From the NCBI GenBank assembly GCA_000092065.1, contig CP000586.1: 64,000 bases of DNA; one strand, given 5' to 3'. This stretch comes from Ostreococcus lucimarinus (Eukaryota). A program made the translations under genes and the position numbers. Position 1 is the first letter of the stretch. The number at the start of each line of letters is the position of its first letter. The notes under the pieces are model-generated. The model saw only the letters and a program-made list of their open reading frames with translations. It was not told the origin of the DNA and searched no databases. Below, piece by piece: positions 15,405 through 46,679 of this stretch.

Positions 15405-18311
15405 ATGCACCGCCGCAGTGGCCGGCGCGCGCGGCGCGCGGTCGACATCGCGCTGGCAGGCGTCGCGGTACGAATGAAGTACGCGATGGCGACGCCCGAG
15501 CCGCCGCCGAACGCGCCGATACCGCGCACGGCGACGCTGAACGTCACCGATCGAGACCAATGGGACAGAATCTCGAGCGCGATCCTTTCCGGCGCCGGGC
15601 CGCGCGACGCAGGCGACGACGCGCTGAACGTGGAGCGGAAAGCGATGGCGAAAGAACTAGCGGCGATGCGTCGGTACGTCAAAGAGCTGGAGATCGAGCG
15701 GGAGGCGAGCGAGGAGCGGGCGGCGCAGAGAGAGCGGGACGCTCGGGACGCGGAGCAGCGCGCGAACGCGGGAGACGCGAGAAACGCGGAGAGGCTGGCT
15801 ATGAAGGAGCTCGAGATGACGCAGCGAGAGCGTGAACTGATCTTAAGAGAGGAGGAAGTCGACGCGCGGGCGCGGGCGACGGAGGACGCGGAGGTTTTTG
15901 AGGCGAATTTGAAGAGACGCGCGGCGCGTTTGGACGAACGCGAGCGAGCGATGCGAAACGCGAGGGATGATTTAGATTTACGGGACGATCAACTCACGGA
16001 AGCGATCGTCGGGCTCGAGCGCGAAAATGAGGCTGTGCGTCGCGAGACGGCGGCGATGGAACGCCGTCGCGAGGAGATTGTCCGCGAGCTCACGGATCGG
16101 GAGGTGGGCGTATTGAAGCGCGAGGAGAGCGCCACGGAACGTGAGCACGAGTTGCGCGTGGTGGAGGGGCGTTTAGGAGCGCTGAAGGAACGCGCTTCGG
16201 ACGAAGAGGCGCGGTTGAGGCGCGCGATAGAGCGCGCAGACGCGGCAGAGAAGCGAGAGGCGGACGTCGCCAGGCGACTTCACGAACTTGAAAACGACGA
16301 GCAGCGCGTGCGGACGAATTTGCGAGAGGTGCAGGCCGATGTGGGGCGCGCTGTCGACGTCAAGGCGAGCGCGCAACGCGAAACGGATGCGTTGAAGAAG
16401 GACGTCGAAATATTGCGCGGAGAACTCAGCGCGCTTACGGCTGAAAAGGCGCGACAAGTGCAATTCATCCAGAGCGTACGCTCCGATTTAGACGAGCGCG
16501 AGCGCGAAACTGCGGACGCGGCGGAAATCGCGGCGAACGAGTGCGAAGCCATCGCCGTTGCGTGGGACGAAATTGAAAGCATGCGCTCTGACTTGGAGCG
16601 TCAAGAAAAGATGATCGAAGACACGGCGGCACAGTTGGAAGAAAACGTCAAGGCGTTTGACCGCGACGCCACGGCGATGCGCGAGCGTCAGGAGGAAAAC
16701 GAGCGAAAGCTCGATGAGTTGCGCGAACACGAGGAGTTTTTACGTCGATTAGCGAGCGAAAACGAATCAAAGGCGCGCGAAGTCTCGACGCTCGAAGCGG
16801 AGATCGCCGAGCGACTCCGCGACGTGGAGGCGCGAGAGGCGGAAGTAGCCGAATGGAGGCCGCAAATTGACGAGTTCAAGTCAAAACGAGTGGACATCGA
16901 GGCGCACGCGGCAGCGATCGAAACAGCCAAGACGCAACTCGTCGAGCTGAGCGCTCGTGAGAAAGAGCTCGAAGAGAAAGAGTTACAGCTCGAGCGACGC
17001 GAAGAGGCGGCGGCTCGTCAGTTGAGCGCCGCGGCTGAAGCGGAGGTAATCTTGAATGAAGAAAACGCCAAGTTGGAGCAAAAGCTGCAAGAAATGGCGC
17101 CGAACTTGATCGCCGCTGAGCTCGAACGCGAAGTGGTCGAATTAAAGATGGAGCTCGAACGCACGAAAGCCGCAGCGAACGCCGTGATGGCGAACGCGGA
17201 CATGGAGCGACGACGCCGCGAGGAAGAAGAATCTTCCAGCGGCGCCGCCGCCGGCGACGCTGACCCTTTTGCCGCGGTCGGTGAGGAGAAAATTCGTCAA
17301 GAGGAGCGCGCGCGCGCAGAACAAGTCCTTGAGTCTAAGACGGCGGCGCTCTTACGCGCGAACGCGCTTCTAGATGCGAGAGAAAATGAGCTCGCCAAGC
17401 GCGAATTCGCGTTGACGGATGAGCTTGAACGACTCGAGCACGATACTGCGCGCCTGTTGACGCTACAAGACGAAGTGAACGAGCGAATGAAGGACGTGCT
17501 CGAGGTCGAGATGCACGGCATCGGCGGTGAGCCGCGCAAACGGCGAGAAGACGCGTCGGACTACGCGACCGTCGCCAACGCCGAGCGTCACGCGGCGACC
17601 ATTCTCGCCGACGCGGAGGAGGTGCGCCGAACCGCGCGCGCCCACCTCGAGGCCGCTACGGCTACCGCACAAGCCGCGCGGGCGATCAACGACGCATGCG
17701 AGTCCAGCGAAAGAGAAGGCGCGGCGACGATAAAGCGCGTATCCGCCGTCGTGGCCTCGGCAATTCAGGCGGCGAAGCGACAGGGCGACGAATTACGCGC
17801 CCGCCGCGAGCAAGCCTCTACGTCCGTCGTCGCGCTCGATCGCGACGCCAAGATTGATTTACTCGACGCTCAACTCGAGTACGTCGCCAAGGCCAAGGCT
17901 GACCTCGACCGCCGCGAGGCGTCCATACGAAGCGACTCGTTCGCCGCGGCGTCTCGCCGTCGCGCCGACGCCGCGACGTCCAACGACGAGCTCTCCTCCC
18001 GAGCCCGAACCGCGCGCCTTCGCGAGGAAGTCCACGGCGCCGCCGAGCATCTTCTCGAGTGTTTGTCTCAGGGCGAGACCGCGCTCGCGCGAGCCGACGC
18101 CGTGCTCCACGCGCCTCGCGTCTCCGAGCTCCGTCTCAAGCTCGCCGGATTACTCGGCGTCGCCGATCGTCTCGCGCGCGCGCGCGTCGACGTCTCCGGC
18201 GACGACACCGAAGAGGACATTTTATCCGATCGTCTCGCCGCGTTAGAGCACGAGATTCGTCGCGCCGGCGGTTGGTTCGAGGACTTGCGTCGCGCCGTTC
18301 GCGAGGTGTAA
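15405..18311 (+). CDS. large E/R/A-rich coiled-coil protein (968 aa), function unknown
   Basis: Continuous heptad-like ERxxLEE repeats across ~900 aa. No enzymatic motif seen. Confidence 0.55.
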   Translation: MHRRSGRRARRAVDIALAGVAVRMKYAMATPEPPPNAPIPRTATLNVTDRDQWDRISSAILSGAGPRDAGDDALNVERKAMAKELAAMRRYVKELEIEREASEERAAQRERDARDAEQRANAGDARNAERLAMKELEMTQRERELILREEEVDARARATEDAEVFEANLKRRAARLDERERAMRNARDDLDLRDDQLTEAIVGLERENEAVRRETAAMERRREEIVRELTDREVGVLKREESATEREHELRVVEGRLGALKERASDEEARLRRAIERADAAEKREADVARRLHELENDEQRVRTNLREVQADVGRAVDVKASAQRETDALKKDVEILRGELSALTAEKARQVQFIQSVRSDLDERERETADAAEIAANECEAIAVAWDEIESMRSDLERQEKMIEDTAAQLEENVKAFDRDATAMRERQEENERKLDELREHEEFLRRLASENESKAREVSTLEAEIAERLRDVEAREAEVAEWRPQIDEFKSKRVDIEAHAAAIETAKTQLVELSAREKELEEKELQLERREEAAARQLSAAAEAEVILNEENAKLEQKLQEMAPNLIAAELEREVVELKMELERTKAAANAVMANADMERRRREEEESSSGAAAGDADPFAAVGEEKIRQEERARAEQVLESKTAALLRANALLDARENELAKREFALTDELERLEHDTARLLTLQDEVNERMKDVLEVEMHGIGGEPRKRREDASDYATVANAERHAATILADAEEVRRTARAHLEAATATAQAARAINDACESSEREGAATIKRVSAVVASAIQAAKRQGDELRARREQASTSVVALDRDAKIDLLDAQLEYVAKAKADLDRREASIRSDSFAAASRRRADAATSNDELSSRARTARLREEVHGAAEHLLECLSQGETALARADAVLHAPRVSELRLKLAGLLGVADRLARARVDVSGDDTEEDILSDRLAALEHEIRRAGGWFEDLRRAVREV

Positions 18312-34494: not shown

Positions 34495-37308
34495 ATGATT
34501 CCATCCTCCGAACGCGCGAGCGAACGCCTGACGAGCATCTTGAGCAACGCCGAGTGGGTCACGCGACGGAACGAGCGCGGTGGTGATCATTACATCGCGC
34601 GCGAACGCGTCGGACGCGAGTCGAGGGATGACTCGACGAAGTCTGTGTGGACGGGGTCGCTGTCGATGAGTCGACGAGGTCGACCGCTGGCGAACGAGAC
34701 GCGACCGAACGAAACAGTGGACGAAACCGTCGGCACGGCGATGAAATCGACGTTTGGAAGCGGAAATCTAGAATACATAGGAGCGAGCTCGGCGCAGGCG
34801 AGCGATGCGGATGTGTCTGATGGGGAAGAGCGAGTGCCTTCGACGTCGACGAGACTGGCGGGACGGACGAGTCAAACGATCGATGATTTAAGTAATTTAG
34901 TGCAGTCGAGGACGATCACATGCCAGTTAGTGGCGCAAGCGCCACCTACGGGGGCGAATATTCCAGGGACGGCGCGGGGCGAGGGATTCGCGCGGGCGAG
35001 CGCGGCGGGGAACGCGCTGCCAGAAATAGTGCACGCCGAGTGCGTGGCGCCCGGGGACGATGATTGGCCGGATGTTTGGGATCCCATAGCGTTGTTGCGA
35101 CTGTATCCACTCTCAGCGCATCACGTGACGCCGTTTCATCAGATACACGCTACGTTGACGGATTGCAGAGATGATGCGGCGAAGGACGCCGAGGGCGGAG
35201 AACCCGTGCCAGCGGCGGCGCGCATGGACCTTCCGGATGGTTACGTCGTCTTTATCGTTTCCGACACGGGCTTGCCAGATATCGTGCGCGATGCCGTGGG
35301 GCCGACGAGTGGGAGCACGAAACGTAAGACGGATGAGTCGAAGAAACCAAAGCCGTTGTGGGCGATCATTCAAAGCATCGTTCCGCTCGTCGCGCCGCAG
35401 CCGCCGGCTTCGGTGCCCACGCCAGACTTGAAACCGACGCGTGGGATCCTTCGGGGTTGGGTACCGCCGCCGAAAGAACCGGCGATTGACGAAACGAACA
35501 ACATGGGTCTCGGGCACGCGGCGGAAGAGCAGGAGGGCGTGCGTATGCCCGAGGAACTCTCGGGTGTACACCCAGCCGCGGAGACAACGGACGAAGAGAA
35601 ATCTTTGAGTTCGGCGCACGAGATGACGAGTGGAGTCGAACGCGAGGGTATGGGCACCGTGACTCCGGTTGTGAGCGAAGAAACGAGCGAGTTAACGTCG
35701 GGCACATCTGAGATAGATAGAGTGACGATCAAGATTGGCGGCGATGACGAACTAGACGACTGGCTTTCGCCGCCGCTCGCGCGGCGTAAACGTAAGTCTA
35801 TCGCCGGCCCATCGTCTGGATCTGGGTCTGATGGCGAAAACTCTGACGACTCATCCGGGCGCGAATTTGCCAAACTGAAACGCACAGCGACGTCGCCGAC
35901 GGCGTCGCCGAGCTCGTCTGAAGGCGAAGAAGACAGAGTTCCGATGGAGGGTCAACACGAGATTCCGACGAGCGCGGCAGCGATCGCGCAAGTCATCTCG
36001 CCCGAACAACGCGTACCGTGCATTCCTCTCACTGGCTTGCGTTATATGCTCCTAGGATTCGAAGTCAATCACCCGCATGTGGTTTTCTTGATCAAGTCAC
36101 TCGCCGACGAGGGCGCCGTGTACGTGAGCGACGCAAAGCCAGAAGAAGTCGACTTGATCGTCGTTCACCCGCCATTTTTGCAGCTCTTATCCGCGCCTCA
36201 GTTTCCAGTGCACGTTTCAGATTTCATTAGAACCAGGCACACTCGGTTTGCGCTCGGCTTGCGCCATCTGGAACTTTGCTTGGAGTACAAGCGCAGGCTT
36301 GATCCGCGACTTGAAACCGCAGAGGTTTTCCCCGAAGGTGTCCTGGTTGTCATGGACGATAGTGCGTTGACGAATGACGAAGACGCTTTACATCGAGTTG
36401 TACGCCTACTCGCGCAAGCTGCCGCGGCAAGCGCTGCCGCTGCCGCGGCGAAAGGCATATTTCACTACGGACAAGACGGGAATCGCGAGAATCCACCTTG
36501 GCCGTGGGCTATTAAAGTCGCCAACAGCACGATCCAGAAGCTCATGATGACCAAGCTACGTACGATGCAAACTAACACGGAGAAGGCGTGGAAGATTGAG
36601 ACTATGATCAAGGCCTTGCACGCGTACAAGCACGCTGGCGATCGAGCTGGAAGAGGCGCGAGAGTGATGGGTATTACGTGGGAGGAAGCGTCGCACCAGC
36701 CCGTGGAAGATCCACCGCAAGCGGTGCGCGATGCGGTCAAAATAGCTTCGCGTCACGTATCTATGTGTCGGGCTGTGTTTTTAGTGAGCGAAGACCCGAA
36801 GACACTCGCCGCGGCGAAAGGGCACACGAGCATCCTGTCTGGCTCTGCGAACGACGCCTGCGACTTTTTGACGCAACTCGTTCGCGAGATGTGGGCAGAG
36901 ACCAAAGCGGCGCGAACGGGCATGAACGTGCACGACAGTAATTTGCGTAAAGCAATGTCGGTGAGCGAACCTTCCGCGAGCGAAGTCGTCTCCGATGCGC
37001 AGCACTCGATGAAGCTAGCGGACGTCGAGGACGAAGTCACCGGCGGCGGTCTCGGGCAAAAGCTAACAACGAAAAAAGTTGTCAAGTTCCCTACCATGAT
37101 CGATGACGGTGGTCAAAGCACGCGCAGTCGCGGTCGATATAGTCCGCCGCCTTCGCCCACGCGCACGAACTCCGGACGCACGGGCGAAGATACGAGTAAA
37201 GATACGAGTAAGACGTCGACGGGCGACGCCCCGACCGACGGCGAAGAAACCGCGCAGTCGCCCATCGTGACGCCTCATAAGAAGCTTTGGCGACGTCGGC
37301 GAGTGTGA
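34495..37308 (+). CDS. hypothetical 937-aa protein with a possible BRCT-like segment
   Basis: Single ORF with S/T/E-rich disordered regions. The segment VPCIPLTGLRYMLLGFEVNHPHVVFLIKSLADEGAVYVSDAKPEEVDLIVVHP resembles a BRCT fold pattern (weak). Confidence 0.4.
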   Translation: MIPSSERASERLTSILSNAEWVTRRNERGGDHYIARERVGRESRDDSTKSVWTGSLSMSRRGRPLANETRPNETVDETVGTAMKSTFGSGNLEYIGASSAQASDADVSDGEERVPSTSTRLAGRTSQTIDDLSNLVQSRTITCQLVAQAPPTGANIPGTARGEGFARASAAGNALPEIVHAECVAPGDDDWPDVWDPIALLRLYPLSAHHVTPFHQIHATLTDCRDDAAKDAEGGEPVPAAARMDLPDGYVVFIVSDTGLPDIVRDAVGPTSGSTKRKTDESKKPKPLWAIIQSIVPLVAPQPPASVPTPDLKPTRGILRGWVPPPKEPAIDETNNMGLGHAAEEQEGVRMPEELSGVHPAAETTDEEKSLSSAHEMTSGVEREGMGTVTPVVSEETSELTSGTSEIDRVTIKIGGDDELDDWLSPPLARRKRKSIAGPSSGSGSDGENSDDSSGREFAKLKRTATSPTASPSSSEGEEDRVPMEGQHEIPTSAAAIAQVISPEQRVPCIPLTGLRYMLLGFEVNHPHVVFLIKSLADEGAVYVSDAKPEEVDLIVVHPPFLQLLSAPQFPVHVSDFIRTRHTRFALGLRHLELCLEYKRRLDPRLETAEVFPEGVLVVMDDSALTNDEDALHRVVRLLAQAAAASAAAAAAKGIFHYGQDGNRENPPWPWAIKVANSTIQKLMMTKLRTMQTNTEKAWKIETMIKALHAYKHAGDRAGRGARVMGITWEEASHQPVEDPPQAVRDAVKIASRHVSMCRAVFLVSEDPKTLAAAKGHTSILSGSANDACDFLTQLVREMWAETKAARTGMNVHDSNLRKAMSVSEPSASEVVSDAQHSMKLADVEDEVTGGGLGQKLTTKKVVKFPTMIDDGGQSTRSRGRYSPPPSPTRTNSGRTGEDTSKDTSKTSTGDAPTDGEETAQSPIVTPHKKLWRRRRV

Positions 37309-40939: not shown

Positions 40940-42442
40940 TTAATCGTCGTCGTTGTCGGCGACGAATTTGGCGACGACCGGGGCGAGCGCGAGCGCGGCG
41001 GCTAAGCGAAGCGGCACGAAGAGACGCACGACGTTGATGAAGACGGCGCCGGCGCCGAATAGCTTGGCCTTGTCGGTGGGATCGGAAAGATCGAGCCACG
41101 TGCCCTCTGCGACTTTGTACCACGTGAACGCCACGGGGGCGGCGACGGCCCAAAATGCGAGTTCGATGATGACGTAGGAAACGGTGCCGGCGACGCCGAA
41201 CGATTTTACGTCTTGCATCGTCAGTTTCGGCGCGTTCGCCCCAGAGTTGAGCGCGTAGTACGTCCACACGACGCTGGGTAGAGCTATCATGCCGAGCGCT
41301 TTACCATACGACGGTTCAGCGAAGAACGCTCCGAAAGGCGAGGCGAGTTCGCCGTACTTGACAGCGGTGCTCGCGAGCGACGTCCACAACGCCAACTTGA
41401 GCGCGAATCCTAATCCGTCTTCGATCGGCGCCGCACCCTCTAAAACGGGCGTCTCGCTATCGGCGCCGTCTTTTTCGTTTGTCGCTATCGTGTACGCCGC
41501 TACCGCGCACCCTGTGTTACCCATCAACGTCAACAGCGCCTGCAAAGGCACGAGCGCGTTGATGGACGCGGGATTGTAAAACGCATGAAACGTGCACGCC
41601 GTTATACCAGACGCCAGAAACGGAGACATGGCCACCGTGAGGTTCCGCCAACTCGCGTTTCCGGTCCTATCCGCGTGCCCGGCGACGTATTTCATCGCTA
41701 ACGCCCATTCGGTGACGCTCGAGACGTGCACCGCCCACGTCGGCAAACTCAGCGCGTTGCCCGGCTCGCTCGCCAGCAACTCACCATCCACGATCGACGG
41801 CGCGACCGCCCCGATCGCGAGCGTGCTCGCCGCGCACGTTAAAAACAAAACCCCCAGCACGACGTACGCCGGCGTCGTCGCGCGCTCCTCACCATCCTCG
41901 TCTTTCTCCCCGTCGTCCCCGCGCCCCGCCGCCGCGCCGAACCCGTACGCGAACAACGCGTTCGACACCGTCAACAGCGATTCCGAGCTCCCGTGCAGCG
42001 CGTCTACGTTGGCTAATATATCTCCATACCGCATCTTGGCCACGATTCCCGCCGGTATCGTCGCCGCGACGAACAACAACAAGAATCGCGCGCCGAAGTT
42101 TGACGCTCGCGGCGTCGCGCGCGCGTCCCGCAGAAACCACAGGTACGCCAGGTACGGCGCGAGTCCGACTTGAAACAGCTGCGTCTCGATCCCGGGCGGG
42201 ATGAATCGCAGCGCGGTGCCGCTCGCGCTCGTCACGGACCACGCGTCGACCGCGGCGAGGGCGTCGACGACCGATTGCGCGCGCGCGATGGTGGTCGGTC
42301 GCCGTGCGTCGCGGCGACGACGCGACGCGCTGGACGCGCGAGGCGGACGCGGACGCGGATGCGCGCGCGCGGACGAGTGATGGCGCGCGAAGTCGCGCCC
42401 GCGCGGGCGGACGCGCGCGGACGCGGACGCGATGGACGCCAT
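40940..42442 (-). CDS. multi-pass membrane protein with plastid-like presequence, possibly ycf49-like (DUF2499/DUF3593)
   Basis: ~10 hydrophobic helices. Conserved-looking LPTWAVHVSSVTEWALAMKYV. Confidence 0.55.
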   Translation of the reverse strand: MASIASASARVRPRGRDFARHHSSARAHPRPRPPRASSASRRRRDARRPTTIARAQSVVDALAAVDAWSVTSASGTALRFIPPGIETQLFQVGLAPYLAYLWFLRDARATPRASNFGARFLLLFVAATIPAGIVAKMRYGDILANVDALHGSSESLLTVSNALFAYGFGAAAGRGDDGEKDEDGEERATTPAYVVLGVLFLTCAASTLAIGAVAPSIVDGELLASEPGNALSLPTWAVHVSSVTEWALAMKYVAGHADRTGNASWRNLTVAMSPFLASGITACTFHAFYNPASINALVPLQALLTLMGNTGCAVAAYTIATNEKDGADSETPVLEGAAPIEDGLGFALKLALWTSLASTAVKYGELASPFGAFFAEPSYGKALGMIALPSVVWTYYALNSGANAPKLTMQDVKSFGVAGTVSYVIIELAFWAVAAPVAFTWYKVAEGTWLDLSDPTDKAKLFGAGAVFINVVRLFVPLRLAAALALAPVVAKFVADNDDD

Positions 42443-42565: not shown

Positions 42566-45118
42566 TCAGAGGAACTTTTTGACGACGCGCTTGGACTCGT
42601 CGACGACGGACTCGAGGTCATCCTTGAGGTTGGCGTCCGAGGTGCCGTAGCGTTGGAACGAGTAAACCAACACGCCGGCGCCGAGAAGCTCTAACAATCG
42701 CGGCGCCGCGATGGCGACGAGCGGCCAGCGGGCGACGTTGCCGAGCACGTACGTGCCCGCGAGGGCGGTGGCCGGGCCCGCGATGTCGACCACGGGGTTT
42801 TCGCTGTCACCGAACCATTCCGGGACCTCCTTGAGCGTGTCGGTCACTTCGGAAATGTCGACGTCTTGCACCGCAGACACCGTCTTGGAGGCGGTCTTAC
42901 CGATCGGGGCCAGTTGATCGATGACTTCGCCGACATCGCCTGGCAACTCGCGCGGCAAGTTGGCGGCGAGATCTTCGATGTCGTCCGCGATATCGTCTTC
43001 GCCGACGAGGAGGTAACGCTCCAAGAGCAAGACGGCGGTCAGGGTGCCGATGAATTCGAGCGGACCCGGCACGAGCGAGCCGAGAACGGGCAAGTGCGCG
43101 ACGGCGTCGGTAGCCACGACAGCACCGACGGTGGCAGCCTTTACGTTAAAGTTGTCGATACCATCAATCGTCTCGAAAACTCCATCCGCCGCACCTTCAA
43201 GGTCGCCCTCGAGGAGCGAATCTCTGACGCCCGGCACGGCCAACGCGAGCGCGACGGCGGTGGCCAAGCTTACGGCGGCGACGTCACTGAACGTGGCGCC
43301 GACGAAGTCAAGGCTCTTGCTGCTGTTGTTGCGCGCAGTGGCGTCCGCGCGCGCCTTCGCAGTCTTGGCCTTGACTTCTTTAGCCTTCTTGTCCGCGAGA
43401 GCCTTCTTCTTCGCGGCGGCGGCAGCCTTGGCGTCAACCTTCTTCGCGGCGGGCTTGGAAGCGGCGGGCTTGGAAGCTGCGGGCTTCGGCGCGGCGGGCT
43501 TCGGCGCGGCGGCTTCAACCTTCGGCACGGCGGCTTCGACGGCCTTCTCTGCGGCGGCAACTTCTCTTTCCGCGGCTTGCTCGGCGCGAAGCGCTTCGCG
43601 TTCCGCGGCTTGCGCCTTGGCGGCGGCGGCGCGAGTGGCCTTGTCGTTGGTCATCGCCGCTTCCATCTTCGCCTTGGCGGCGGCTCGGGCGGCAACTTTT
43701 TCGGTAGCGGCGGCCTTAGCGGCGTTCGCTCTGGCAGCTTGCGCAGCCTTTCTGGCGGCCACTTGCTTATCGGCGCTCGACGTCGCTGCGCTGACGCGCT
43801 TTCTGCTCGATTCCGATTTCTCCGCGATGAGCTTCGCTCGCGCGTCGGCGGCAGCCTTGCGTTCGGCTTGCTTTTTAGCCGCAAGCTTGGAGGCCGCAGC
43901 AGCCTTCTCAGCTTGCTTGATGGCGCCCGGGGTCTTCTTCGGCGCTTGGATGACCGGAGCTTGAACAACCGGAGCTTCGACGACGGGTTCGACGACGACG
44001 GGCTTCTCCGCCTTTACCGGCGCCTTCTTCGCAAGACGCGCCTTCTTCGCGGCTTCAAGCTTGGCCGCGTTCGCAGCCTTAGCTTTGGCGGCAGCTTCTG
44101 CGCGTTCGGTGGCAGCCTTTTGCGCGGCGGCGGCAGCCTTCTCCGCTTCCGCGTCGCGCGCCGCCTTGATCTTGGCCAATTCCGCTTCGCGAGCCTCCTT
44201 GGCGGCTTCGCGCTTCGCCGCGGATGGCTTATCCGCGGACTTCGTCGGCATTTCCGCGACGGCAGGCGCTTCAGCCACCGGCGCGGTGGCCTTGGAAGCG
44301 ACACGCTTGACCGGACGCTTCGTCGTCGGCGCTGCCGTGGCTGCCGGCGCTGGCGCAGCCTTAGACGCCACGCGCTTCACCGGACGCTTCGTCGGCGGCG
44401 CCGCCACACCCTTCACGGTGCGCTTAGACACGACGCGCTTCACCGGACGCTTCGTCGTCGCCGCCGCCACACCCTTCACGGTGCGCTTAGACACGACGCG
44501 CTTCACCGGACGCTTCGTCGTCGCCGCCGCCTTGACCGCGGGCGCGGTCTTAGACGCCACGCGCTTCACCGCGCGCTTCGTCGTCGGCGTCGCCTTACCG
44601 GGCGCCGCCTTCGACGCGACGCGCTTCACCGGACGCTTCGTCGCCGGCACCGCCGTCGCCGTCGCCTTGGTCGCCGTTCGCGCGCGCACCTTCCTCACGC
44701 CCTTTCGCGCCCCCCCGCTCGTCGTTTTCGCCTTAAATTCCTTCTTCCCCGCCTTGACCTTCGGCGCGACGCGCGACGCCGTCGACTTCGCCGTCGTCGT
44801 CGTCGCTCGCCGCTTCGTCGTCCGTTCGTACGGCGTCCCTCTCCCGTTCACCGTCGACGCTCGCTTCGCCTCGTACGCCTCCGCGACGTCCGTCATCCCC
44901 ACGATCGCGCTCACCGCCACCGCCGTCGCCGCCATCGCCGTCGACCGTCGCTTCGCGTCGTCGTCGTCGTCGCTTCGCGCGTCGCCGTCGTCGCGTCGCG
45001 TCGTCGCGCGTCGCGCGATCGTCGCCTTCCCGCGTCGCGCATCGCGCGTCGCGCGTCGCGTCGTCGCGTCGCGTCGCCGCGCGGGCGCGCTCGGGATCGT
45101 CGCCGCCGCGAGGGACAT
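42566..45118 (-). CDS. Basic-repeat protein with a C-terminal CAAD/CURT1-like membrane domain
   Basis: Presequence-like N-terminus. Eight or more tandem ~20-aa repeats (TTKRPVKRVASK...). ~300 aa A/K/E-rich coiled region. C-terminus WPLVAIAAPRLLELLGAGVLVYSFQRYG resembles the CURT1/CAAD motif PLLPKVMELVGLGYTGWFVYRYLLF. Confidence 0.6.
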   Translation of the reverse strand: MSLAAATIPSAPARRRDATTRRATRDARRGKATIARRATTRRDDGDARSDDDDDAKRRSTAMAATAVAVSAIVGMTDVAEAYEAKRASTVNGRGTPYERTTKRRATTTTAKSTASRVAPKVKAGKKEFKAKTTSGGARKGVRKVRARTATKATATAVPATKRPVKRVASKAAPGKATPTTKRAVKRVASKTAPAVKAAATTKRPVKRVVSKRTVKGVAAATTKRPVKRVVSKRTVKGVAAPPTKRPVKRVASKAAPAPAATAAPTTKRPVKRVASKATAPVAEAPAVAEMPTKSADKPSAAKREAAKEAREAELAKIKAARDAEAEKAAAAAQKAATERAEAAAKAKAANAAKLEAAKKARLAKKAPVKAEKPVVVEPVVEAPVVQAPVIQAPKKTPGAIKQAEKAAAASKLAAKKQAERKAAADARAKLIAEKSESSRKRVSAATSSADKQVAARKAAQAARANAAKAAATEKVAARAAAKAKMEAAMTNDKATRAAAAKAQAAEREALRAEQAAEREVAAAEKAVEAAVPKVEAAAPKPAAPKPAASKPAASKPAAKKVDAKAAAAAKKKALADKKAKEVKAKTAKARADATARNNSSKSLDFVGATFSDVAAVSLATAVALALAVPGVRDSLLEGDLEGAADGVFETIDGIDNFNVKAATVGAVVATDAVAHLPVLGSLVPGPLEFIGTLTAVLLLERYLLVGEDDIADDIEDLAANLPRELPGDVGEVIDQLAPIGKTASKTVSAVQDVDISEVTDTLKEVPEWFGDSENPVVDIAGPATALAGTYVLGNVARWPLVAIAAPRLLELLGAGVLVYSFQRYGTSDANLKDDLESVVDESKRVVKKFL

Positions 45119-45209
45119 GTCGTTCGCGAGCCGTGCGCGCGCGCGTGTGCGCGCGCGATCGCCGCGGCGTCGCGAATCGAATCGGATAATCGTCCAAATC
45201 TCTAGTTTT

Positions 45210-45374
45210 CACTGTTTACGCATACGTAACGTATTCTGCGTACGTTTACGCTATGAATGACGCTTGACGTGGTCGTATGTACTGTTTACGCATACGTAAC
45301 GTATTCTGCGTACGTTAACGCTATGCATGACGCTTGACGTGGTCGTATTCTGCGTTCGCACTGTTTGCGCGTCC
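45210..45374 (+). repeat. Tandem 70-bp repeat, 2.3 copies, in the promoter of the PRP3 gene
   Basis: Units at 45211-45280 and 45281-45350 are ~94 % identical; partial third copy cgcactgtttgcgcg. Each unit carries CACTGTTTACGCATACG plus ACGT cores (TACGTAACG, TGACGCTTGACGTGG). Confidence 0.85.
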
Positions 45375-45724
45375 AACGCGTCGGTCGCCGCGCGCGGCGT
45401 CGACGACCGCGCGCGCACACCGCGACGGACCGCGACGACGGCATGCGCGCGTCGCGGTCGCGGTCGCGGTCGCGGTCGACCGATCGGTCGACGGCGCGCG
45501 CGAGCGCGCGCGACGGCGACGGCGCGCGAGGGACGGCGGCGTCGGACCGGGCGCGCGTGGACGGGATGACGGTGCGCGCGCTGCGGGACGCGCTGCGCGC
45601 GCGAGGGATGGCCACGGACGGGGTCAAGGCGACGCTGGCGGCGCGGTTGCTCGAGAGCGCGGGCGGTTCGGAGGGAGGGACGAAGCGGGCGCGGGAGGGG
45701 GGGGCGGCGCGCGACGGCGACGGC

Positions 45725-45777
<53 letters not shown>

Positions 45778-46270
45778 GGGGACGACGGCGACGCGAGCGA
45801 CGAAACGAAGGCGGTGGGAGGATGGCGACGGTGCGGAGGGGGCGGGGGAGGCGAAACCGGAGGCGGTGGTGGCGAAACCCAAGGCGGCGGGCGGTTTGGA
45901 CAAGGCGGCGCTGTTGAAGCAAAAGCAGGCGTTGTTGAAGCAGAAAGAACTCGCGGCGAAGCTCAAGGCGAAGAAGGTGGCGGACGAGAAAGCGAAGGCG
46001 GCTGCGGGGTCGCGTCCGAGCGCGCGTCCGATGGCGCTGCGACTCGACGCGCAAGGTCGAGAGATTGACGAACGCGGCGAATTGGTGGTGAACAAGGTTA
46101 TCGAGACGTCGACGCTGAGCGTGAATTTGAAGCAGCAACGCGCGAACGCTTTCGCGCAGGCGCAGGCGGAAGCGCAAGCGGAGATCGCGAGTCAGGCCGG
46201 GGCGGATTTTGACGATCCCAGAATGCGGGCTTTCGCGGGAAAGACTCGGAAAAAGCGTTCGGCTTTACAG
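45365..46270 (+). CDS. PRP3: PRP3-like U4/U6 snRNP protein, exon 1 (SAP-motif N-terminus)
   Basis: SAP motif MTVRALRDALRARGMATDGVKATLAARLLE followed by K/A-rich region. Exon ends at CAG|GTGCGT. Start is ATG 45365, or ATG ~45566 at MTVRAL. Confidence 0.65.
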
Positions 46271-46679
46271 GTGCGTTTGAATCGACGCGATTTCCAACCG
46301 CCTCGTGATTTTTTCTTCGTCATTGCATCTTTCAAAGCTCCGTGGTAATCTCACGACATGCCCCTTGGAGACTACAAGATTGCAAAATTGAAAGGCTGGC
46401 GCTCTAATACTCCTCTGAGGTTTCCACTCAGGAGGGTTACGCTGCGTCGGTACATTTTCCACGAAAGCAAGTTACACTCTGTCGCGAGACCTTCTCATGT
46501 CACGTTGCAATTTTTATGCTTGCGATAGTAAATAGCGGATTGGACAGCTGGCGGGGCGCTCTTATCATAGTGGGCGTCATCTCCTTACCATCCGAACCAC
46601 ATTTTTTTGGTTTCGACGAGAAACGTTTTTCTCGGCTTTTCGCCGACTGACCTCGTTTTGCGCGCGTTTTCGTTTGCAG
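46271..46679 (+). other. Spliceosomal intron 1 of PRP3 (GT...AG, 409 nt), markedly lower GC
   Basis: Donor CAG|GTGCGT. Polypyrimidine tract plus TTTGCAG| acceptor. The reading frame of exon 2 (phase 0) matches. Confidence 0.7.

Follow-up and report, generated by a model that had tools for sequence, protein, structure and literature searches.

Tandem CURT1/CAAD-type modules joined to a long charged arm in a predicted thylakoid protein of early-diverging green algae

Introduction

Few shapers of thylakoid membranes are known. The CURT1/CurT proteins belong to these, and work on them has dealt only with small stand-alone proteins of plants and cyanobacteria. A 64,000-nucleotide stretch of Ostreococcus lucimarinus DNA (contig CP000586.1, called the window here) contains a minus-strand open reading frame (ORF), 42566..45118, whose product ends in a CURT1-like sequence and is far larger than CURT1. 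What kind of protein is this, and what does its long remainder do? A sequence-only reading of the window had proposed one CURT1/CAAD domain fused to histone-H1-like repeats and a coil, and had raised the prospect of a thylakoid-anchored DNA-binding protein. The ORF list and translation show a single frame, unbroken from ATG to stop, of 850 amino acids (aa). By profile homology its product belongs to the CURT1/CAAD superfamily and carries two diverged CAAD modules in tandem. These are preceded by an extra hydrophobic helix (TM0), a long charged arm, a signal-peptide-like element and a transit-peptide-like N-terminus.

Known CURT1 proteins are stand-alone proteins of 10–15 kDa with an N-terminal amphipathic helix and two transmembrane (TM) helices, and they induce curvature at grana margins (PMC12661324). 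Phosphorylation in that N-terminal helix seems to be regulated by the STN8 kinase (PMC12661324). The CAAD domain also serves as a thylakoid anchor in cyanobacterial aminoacyl-tRNA synthetases (PMC4893482).

Two CAAD modules in the C-terminal domain

The C-terminal 254 aa of the window protein were aligned with four metagenomic relatives (alignment A1). A CURT1A profile was prepared from a 24-sequence alignment; the Arabidopsis CURT1A query was 100% identical to database entry P0061. In hhalign comparisons with this profile, module 1 (residues ~636-722) was matched with a probability of 97.3% (E 2.7e-11) and module 2 (residues ~750-841) with a probability of 97.8% (E 1.1e-12). Both alignments span the whole CAAD domain. 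The two modules also matched each other (98.8%, E 4.6e-17). The single CURT1/CAAD domain of the sequence-only reading is thus borne out as to homology, and the first of the two modules had been missed.

Because membrane segments can inflate profile scores, shuffling and reversal controls were run on the CAAD part of the alignment alone. The real scores were 58.9 for module 1 and 66.4 for module 2. Reversed columns scored 16.6 and 8.8, respectively, and fully shuffled columns reached at most 14.9 and 15.9. Shuffling within 10-column blocks, which preserves hydropathy, gave maxima of 30.1 and 22.4. Hidden Markov models (HMMs) of the family modules were also matched to Arabidopsis CURT1A, where module 1 scored 34 bits and module 2 scored 42 bits over the full domain (residues ~70-160). 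The angiosperm CURT1A HMM scored 39 bits against the relative from Pyramimonas.

The elements common to CURT1A and both modules are a predicted pre-helix with W-x-x-x-E-N, a hairpin with a Pro-rich loop, (R/K)Y, and an acidic or amphipathic C-terminal helix. Hydropathy and AlphaFold2 (AF2) prediction agree that each module has two adjacent hydrophobic helices with a short loop, as in CAAD. The hydropathy peaks lie at 661-679/681-704 and 783-799/801-823, and the AF2 helices of the 254-aa domain at 61-78/88-109 and 179-200/209-230. The hairpin loops consist of 8 uncharged residues. EWFGDSENP of module 2 aligns with KWDGLENK of CURT1A, and AF2 places a helix before each hairpin. The hydrophobic moment of the helix before the hairpin is 0.45, a value that stands without a CURT1A reference. 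Residues 630-850 as a whole are acidic (net charge -25) with two hydrophobic helix pairs.

Other results count against this assignment or add nothing to it. Pfam PF14159 (CAAD), through which the domain had been expected to be recognised, gave no match to the window protein or four sub-fragments even at E<=10. The angiosperm CURT1A HMM scored only 11.6 bits against the window protein, yet it matched both hairpins. AF2 with a 21-sequence alignment returned a weak model with a predicted local distance difference test (pLDDT) of 53, after 33 with five sequences; module 2 was the best-predicted part (pLDDT 63-76). Foldseek found no match in the PDB under E=2.6. Sequence searches of the PDB gave no match to the whole protein, the basic region or the Ala/Lys/Glu-rich region at cut-offs of E<=1 or E<=10.

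Ten longer relatives were also scanned against Pfam. PF14159 was found below its gathering threshold of 30.7 bits in 6/10, on the first or the second hairpin, the best scores being 22.6 bits (P0041) and 19.2 bits (P0025). In one of these ten distant members it was the sole Pfam match. Taken over all the profile comparisons, the protein belongs to the CURT1/CAAD superfamily, with two diverged tandem modules that arose by internal duplication. It is not CURT1 proper, because it falls below the Pfam threshold, is six times larger, and has tandem modules, TM0 and a signal-like element.

One gene or two

The sequence-only reading had treated the basic region and the C-terminal domain as parts of one gene, and this held. 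The charged region and the CAAD domain share one open frame of 750-945 codons in every lineage examined. Transcript-derived MMETSP proteins of Pyramimonas and Picocystis contain the whole layout.

The sister lineages (L012, L013, L015, L020, L023) have a separate exon 1 upstream of the long frame. It encodes the transit-like region matching residues 1-60, the acidic patch, the hydrophobic stretch (h-region) of the signal-like element, and AEAYEAK (or AHAYDQA, AEAYDAT). A short intron of the form GTGCG...CAG (GT..AG) directly follows the AEAYEAK codons, in the region of nucleotides (nt) ~4041-4290 in L012. The window copy reads AEAYEAK-RASTVNGRG-TPYE without a break and is therefore intronless, a sign that the intron was lost or gained among close relatives.

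Two contigs depart from the single frame. In L001 an apparent frameshift separates the charged region from the CAAD domain; the nearly identical L012 does not show it. L035 (ENA NODE_10496, 2.6x coverage) encodes P0001, in which an unrelated 70-aa N-terminus is joined to residue ~553 of the window protein. Its nt 407-2668 match the window at 99.9%, and its first 406 nt match nothing in the window. P0001 was rejected as an alternative gene structure on account of the low coverage and the foreign first 406 nt. It is probably an assembly chimera formed at the low-complexity region, the alternative being a real structural variant. Neither contig argues for two genes, and one gene encodes both the CAAD domain and the long charged stretch before it.

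Layout of the protein and its family

The features of the window protein are collected in Table 1. The extra helix at 606-629 and the signal-peptide-like segment at 61-81 had no place in the sequence-only reading.

Table 1. Features of the tandem-CAAD gene and its product. Nucleotide positions are those of the window.
Feature	Residues	Nucleotides	Strand	Description
Complete coding sequence		42566..45118	-	850 aa plus stop, intronless
Transit-peptide-like region	1-60	44939..45118	-	Arg/Thr/Ala-rich; acidic patch DDGDARSDDDDD at its end; judged by composition
Signal-peptide-like element	61-82	44873..44938	-	KRR, h-region AMAATAVAVSAIVGM, c-region ending AEA/YE (putative cleavage at the slash); hydropathy peak 1.66
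Polycationic region	100-290	44249..44821	-	K+R 28%, D+E 2%; regular-expression counts and charge profile
Basic repeats	160-277	44288-44641	-	six TKR[PA]VKRV[AV]SK of 21-23 aa each, plus one degenerate copy
Ala/Lys/Glu-rich region	298-600	43319..44227	-	low complexity; A 38%, K 17%
Conserved motif in Ala/Lys/Glu-rich region	482-494	43637..43675	-	AKAKMEAAMTNDK; conserved in L012, L013, L015, L020, L023
TM0	606-629	43232..43303	-	extra hydrophobic helix before the CAAD modules; hydropathy 1.6-1.8
CAAD/CURT1-like module 1	633-720	42959..43222	-	pre-helix, two-helix hairpin with LPVLGSLVPGP loop, ERYLL and acidic helix
Acidic linker	721-756	42851..42958	-	opens with the nearly invariant LPxELP motif
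CAAD/CURT1-like module 2	757-850	42569..42850	-	EWFGDSENP, hairpin with RWPLVAIAAPR loop, QRYG and LKDDLESVVDESKR helix

A profile of alignment A1 was searched against 1.84 billion cluster representatives and, at E<=0.001, retrieved 52 proteins. Among the weakest matches, a few that were very long and repeat-rich looked unrelated and were excluded. Most family matches are metagenome proteins. A look-up by exact sequence gave no entry for the window protein. The species with an identified member are Chlorokybus atmophyticus, Mesostigma viride, Cymbomonas tetramitiformis (KAK3260967.1), Pyramimonas obovata and Picocystis salinarum. UniRef already gives the Pyramimonas obovata member, A0A7S0RBE9, the label of a CAAD-domain protein. 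Of the members that could be identified, none came from a named core chlorophyte or land plant.

A metagenome scan yielded 31 loci. They include same-species copies of 98-100% identity, four Mamiellophyceae-like sister lineages with 61-70% identity in the C-domain, and a more distant lineage, L033/L034, at 41%. The search for orthologues that the sequence-only reading had called for thus produced both close relatives and a wider green-algal family. The locus lies in the nuclear DNA of a green alga with a compact, Mamiellophyceae-like genome.

Full-length members are 389-534 aa long and have one common layout: a transit-like N-terminus, an n-h-c element, an Ala/Glu/Lys/Arg-rich stretch, TM0 and the two modules. 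The n-h-c element has one or more basic residues, 13-18 hydrophobic residues and an AxA-type (small-x-small) ending. Every full-length relative has this element, and exon 1 encodes it in the orthologues. TM0 is a helix in the AF2 models and aligns across all family members. The modules are divided by an acidic linker with the nearly invariant LPxELP (alignment A2), of which L125, P126 and P130 are invariant or nearly so in both A1 and A2.

Most full-length members also carry C-x4-C-R ... (K/R)MEAAR. In P0017, P0025, P0026, P0034, P0038, P0041 and P0046, all outside the window clade, the conserved C-x4-C-R lies within ~5-60 residues of the AxA, in many cases with (K/R)MEAAR after it. Cysteine is entirely absent from the window protein, which keeps AKAKMEAAM at residues 482-490. 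Read by eye and without statistics, its AKAKMEAAMTNDK motif resembles the (K/R)MEAAR that follows CxxxxCR in the Chlorokybus and Mesostigma relatives.

The charged arm

The sequence-only reading had counted at least eight repeats of ~20 aa and had spread the basic repeats over ~450 aa. Both figures came down. A regular-expression search found six clear copies of the basic motif, at residues 160, 180, 201, 222, 243 and 266, and one degenerate copy (RKGVRKV at residue 138), with a spacing of 20-23 residues. The basic region spans ~190 aa (residues ~100-290). Tandem Repeats Finder reported a 63-bp unit in 5.7 copies at 44291-44654. This unit is a coding minisatellite, as seen among loci L004-L011, whose C-domains are 98-100% identical. 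Same-species contigs have 3, 6 or 9 copies and encode proteins of 782-926 aa, in frame throughout; one further contig, which lacks the N-terminus, has 8 copies.

The arm also differs between lineages. Repeats of the TKRPVKRV(A/V)SK type are found in just two of five close lineages, as KRPVKRVASK in the window and as the related AKRTVKKVRS(T/A)KGTPV in L015. Other lineages have repeats of other types: QAKAERERAAA in L012/L013, AAKEAAAKQ in L020 and AAEKAAAEK in L033. In distant members the segment from the h-region to TM0 is 88-224 aa long with a net charge of -10 to +11. In the window clade it is 500-690 aa long with a net charge of +42 to +111, and +91 in the window protein. The motifs SRKRVSAATS and AKAKMEAAM are conserved across the sister lineages.

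Such rapid turnover of repeat type, length and copy number, between and within species, would fit a neutrally drifting linker, in which only the signal, TM0 and the tandem CAAD domain matter; the short segments of the distant members evidently suffice there. Yet the frame has stayed open over the full 500-690 aa in every lineage and allele examined, the closest lineages share a positive net charge, and the two embedded motifs are conserved. Neutral expansion of the N-terminal two-thirds is for these reasons the least probable of the explanations considered here. Since the arm of the window clade seems to have grown partly through hypervariable repeats, its length and charge may matter more than its exact sequence.

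The basic repeats had been likened to linker histone and to AT-hooks. Short basic repeats rich in Lys, Ala, Pro, Thr and Val, with K-x-V-K-K-like motifs, are indeed common to the window protein, the H1 C-terminal tail and H1-like proteins. Bacterial H1-like proteins include Hc2 of Chlamydia and AlgP of Pseudomonas. The window protein differs from all of these in lacking a globular H1/H5 domain, detectable homology, and a GRP or SPKK core. Residues 1-300 and the full protein matched no Pfam family at E<=10, the linker-histone globular winged-helix domain included. The basic repeats had no homologue at E<=0.01 among 5.8 billion proteins, and the arm halves matched no PDB-chain sequence at E<=10. 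The translated sequence contains no GRP tripeptide, the core of the AT-hook; the repeat core is K-R-P-V-K-R. As far as sequence can tell, the resemblance to H1 is compositional only, and the comparison with AT-hooks falls away.

The second part of the arm had been described as an AKE-rich coil of ~300 aa. Its extent and composition (Table 1) agree with that description. It comprises three blocks poor in Pro and Gly, divided by Val/Pro-rich and PKPAA spacers, and is in frame in the orthologues. The blocks contain 41-47% Ala and so few Pro and Gly residues that they are expected to be helix-prone. A coiled coil and a single alpha-helix of the ER/K or EAAAK-like kind were considered and rejected. 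There is no heptad (3.5-residue) hydrophobic periodicity and no excess of opposite-charge (salt-bridge) pairs at i/i+3-4 over shuffled sequences. The region is therefore termed neither a coiled coil nor a single alpha-helix.

Topology and possible function

The transit-like N-terminus suggests that this nuclear-encoded protein goes to the plastid, and from there it would pass to the thylakoid membrane. Which side of that membrane the arm would occupy depends on the orientation of the modules. Both termini of CURT1 reportedly face the stroma, an observation attributed to Armbruster et al. in 2013. If both modules keep the CURT1 orientation, TM0 would therefore cross from lumen to stroma and the arm would be lumenal. 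A lumenal arm also matches the cleavable-looking signal element found throughout the family and the Cys pair just after it.

Other evidence counts against a lumenal arm. A Lys/Arg cluster stands immediately N-terminal of TM0 in nearly all members and, taken alone, favours a stromal arm. Under the positive-inside rule, Lys/Arg densities in the 15-residue flanks of 11 members were ~0.11 on one side vs ~0.10 on the other; these are about equal and therefore do not decide the topology. A net charge of +91 would be unusual for a cargo exported into the lumen. On balance, our reading of the sequence leans towards the lumen. The stroma retains a substantial, smaller share of the probability, with a small remainder for other arrangements.

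A stromal arm could make the protein a thylakoid-nucleoid (or RNA) anchor like MFP1, PEND and TCP34, with the repeats binding plastid DNA or RNA non-specifically and the CAAD domain as tether. The high net charge of the arm, the 28% Lys+Arg of residues 100-290 with almost no acidic residues, the similar K/R-x-V-K-K/R-V repeats of L015 and the basic cluster next to TM0 are all consistent with it. MFP1 provides a precedent with a thylakoid signal, a TM helix and a long helical stromal domain (PMC10801857). In that protein, the thylakoid signal and short TM helix are proposed to put the C-terminal part in the stroma, by analogy with Tat-inserted FtsH-type proteins (PMC10801857). Binding of MFP1 to nucleoids is reported in the same source (PMC10801857, citing Jeong et al. 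2003).

The comparison with MFP1 holds in part. As MFP1 is described, the two proteins would share a transit peptide, a thylakoid signal with a hydrophobic anchor, and a long helical charged region. MFP1 has no CAAD domain; its TM helix directly follows the signal, which is why its long helical domain, a coiled coil, is stromal. The window protein has 520 aa between its signal-like element and the next helix and gives no heptad signal. The conserved h-region/AxA and TM0 predict a lumenal arm if CAAD keeps the CURT1 orientation. A lumenal arm would have no contact with nucleoids; nucleoid binding needs the stromal topology. The arm has no DNA-binding domain, GRP core or H1 globular domain, and its repeats are without homologues. 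Most of the family lacks the repeats, as do L012/L013, L020 and L023, and their copy number within one species ranges over 3-9. Because most members have a short, near-neutral segment in place of the basic arm, DNA binding cannot be a conserved function of the family. A nucleoid anchor is thus possible and not favoured, and we consider it unlikely.

A stromal arm might instead be a scaffold or spacer that separates or glues thylakoids or the envelope, or recruits stromal partners, with a target other than DNA. MFP1 is again a precedent, as a thylakoid-anchored long helical protein that positions stromal structures in starch-granule initiation (PMC10801857). The helix-prone blocks would suit such a role, and the conserved KMEAAM and LPxELP could be partner-binding sites. 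The lack of heptad periodicity speaks against a coiled-coil scaffold, and the topology predicted from the h-region/AxA and TM0 is as much an objection here as to the nucleoid anchor. We regard this reading as improbable.

We therefore lean, on predicted features, towards a plastid-targeted thylakoid-membrane protein of a small, uncharacterised CURT1/CAAD branch, with tandem modules and a charged arm that is preferably lumenal. Under either topology, the best-supported model has two elements. The tandem hairpins would form a covalent CURT1-like dimer and serve as membrane anchor, and they probably help to bend or mark curved thylakoid membrane. The charged segment, tolerant of sequence change and selected for charge, may act as an electrostatic tether, flexible or helical, for polyanionic surfaces. 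In the window clade the arm would have been lengthened and made strongly cationic, partly through the hypervariable basic repeats. In the preferred topology it would contact acidic lumenal membrane faces, not DNA. A more specific proposal is offered tentatively: the protein may be a lumen-facing covalent CURT1 dimer at curved margins, whose arm bridges acidic lumenal faces or sets the lumen width and is tuned in length and charge by hypervariable repeats in picoplanktonic Mamiellophyceae.

TolA domain II is a long Ala/Lys/Glu-rich helix flanked by membrane anchors and situated on the side of an energy-transducing membrane to which proteins are exported. By description its segment is similar to that of the window protein, and it shows that such sequence can be translocated; it is near neutral, whereas the window arm has its large positive charge. 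No thylakoid organiser that works from the lumen in this manner is known to us, and none was met with in the literature searched.

Among known CAAD proteins, CURT1 lacks the tandem modules, the extra helix, the signal-like element and the 520-aa charged arm of the 850-aa window protein. The cyanobacterial synthetases are alike in joining a CAAD module to a large polypeptide unrelated to it. They differ in that one CAAD is inserted in an enzyme, whereas the eukaryotic nuclear gene described here joins two CAADs to a low-complexity arm that is not an enzyme. The searchable literature holds no account of a tandem-CAAD protein or of a prasinophyte CURT1 variant. The architecture is undescribed there, as had been supposed, and the sequences sit in databases unannotated or as "CAAD domain-containing".

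Early-diverging green algae, the ecologically dominant picoplankton included, thus carry a duplicated CURT1 module together with a predicted signal peptide, one additional helix and a long charged arm. A lumenal arm would point to a mode of lumen organisation not recognised so far. With a stromal arm, the protein could tether algal thylakoids to nucleoids or to one another. The in-frame polymorphism of 3, 6 or 9 copies within one species provides a natural length series for the study of function and a possible population marker in environmental genomics.

Genomic surroundings

The window is compact green-algal nuclear DNA of ~62% GC, with genes mostly free of introns. They include genes for PreP, a Twinkle-like helicase, EF3, a CHD remodeller, a KA1 kinase and LepA. 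Two further ATG-started ORFs, 15405-18311 (+) and 34495-37308 (+), encode 968 and 937 aa without a Pfam match at E<=1e-5. The second has a counterpart of 937-952 aa in the syntenic contigs L001 and L002, likewise without Pfam matches.

Three ORFs run antisense to the tandem-CAAD gene, 42866-45205 (+), 44061-45260 (+) and 43044-43964 (+), of 779, 399 and 306 aa. They encode Arg/Gly/Leu-rich nonsense and are most likely by-products of the GC-rich, Ala/Lys-codon-rich repeats, not genes.

The 850-aa ORF is tightly delimited, since its neighbours start ~250 bp and 124 bp away. On one side a divergent gene, 45365-46348 (+), encodes a SAP-domain (PF02037) protein with a (DG)n run and has the ~250-bp intergenic region in common with the tandem-CAAD gene. 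Its counterpart in the same-species contig L002 carries PRP3 Pfam matches. On the other side, 124 bp downstream, an adjacent minus-strand gene starts at 42442. This gene (40940-42442) encodes a 500-aa membrane protein in which DUF3593 (PF12159) is fused to DUF2499 (PF10693), both domains of unknown function according to Pfam. The same gene stands next to the tandem-CAAD gene in L001, from the 70%-identity lineage, and in L002.

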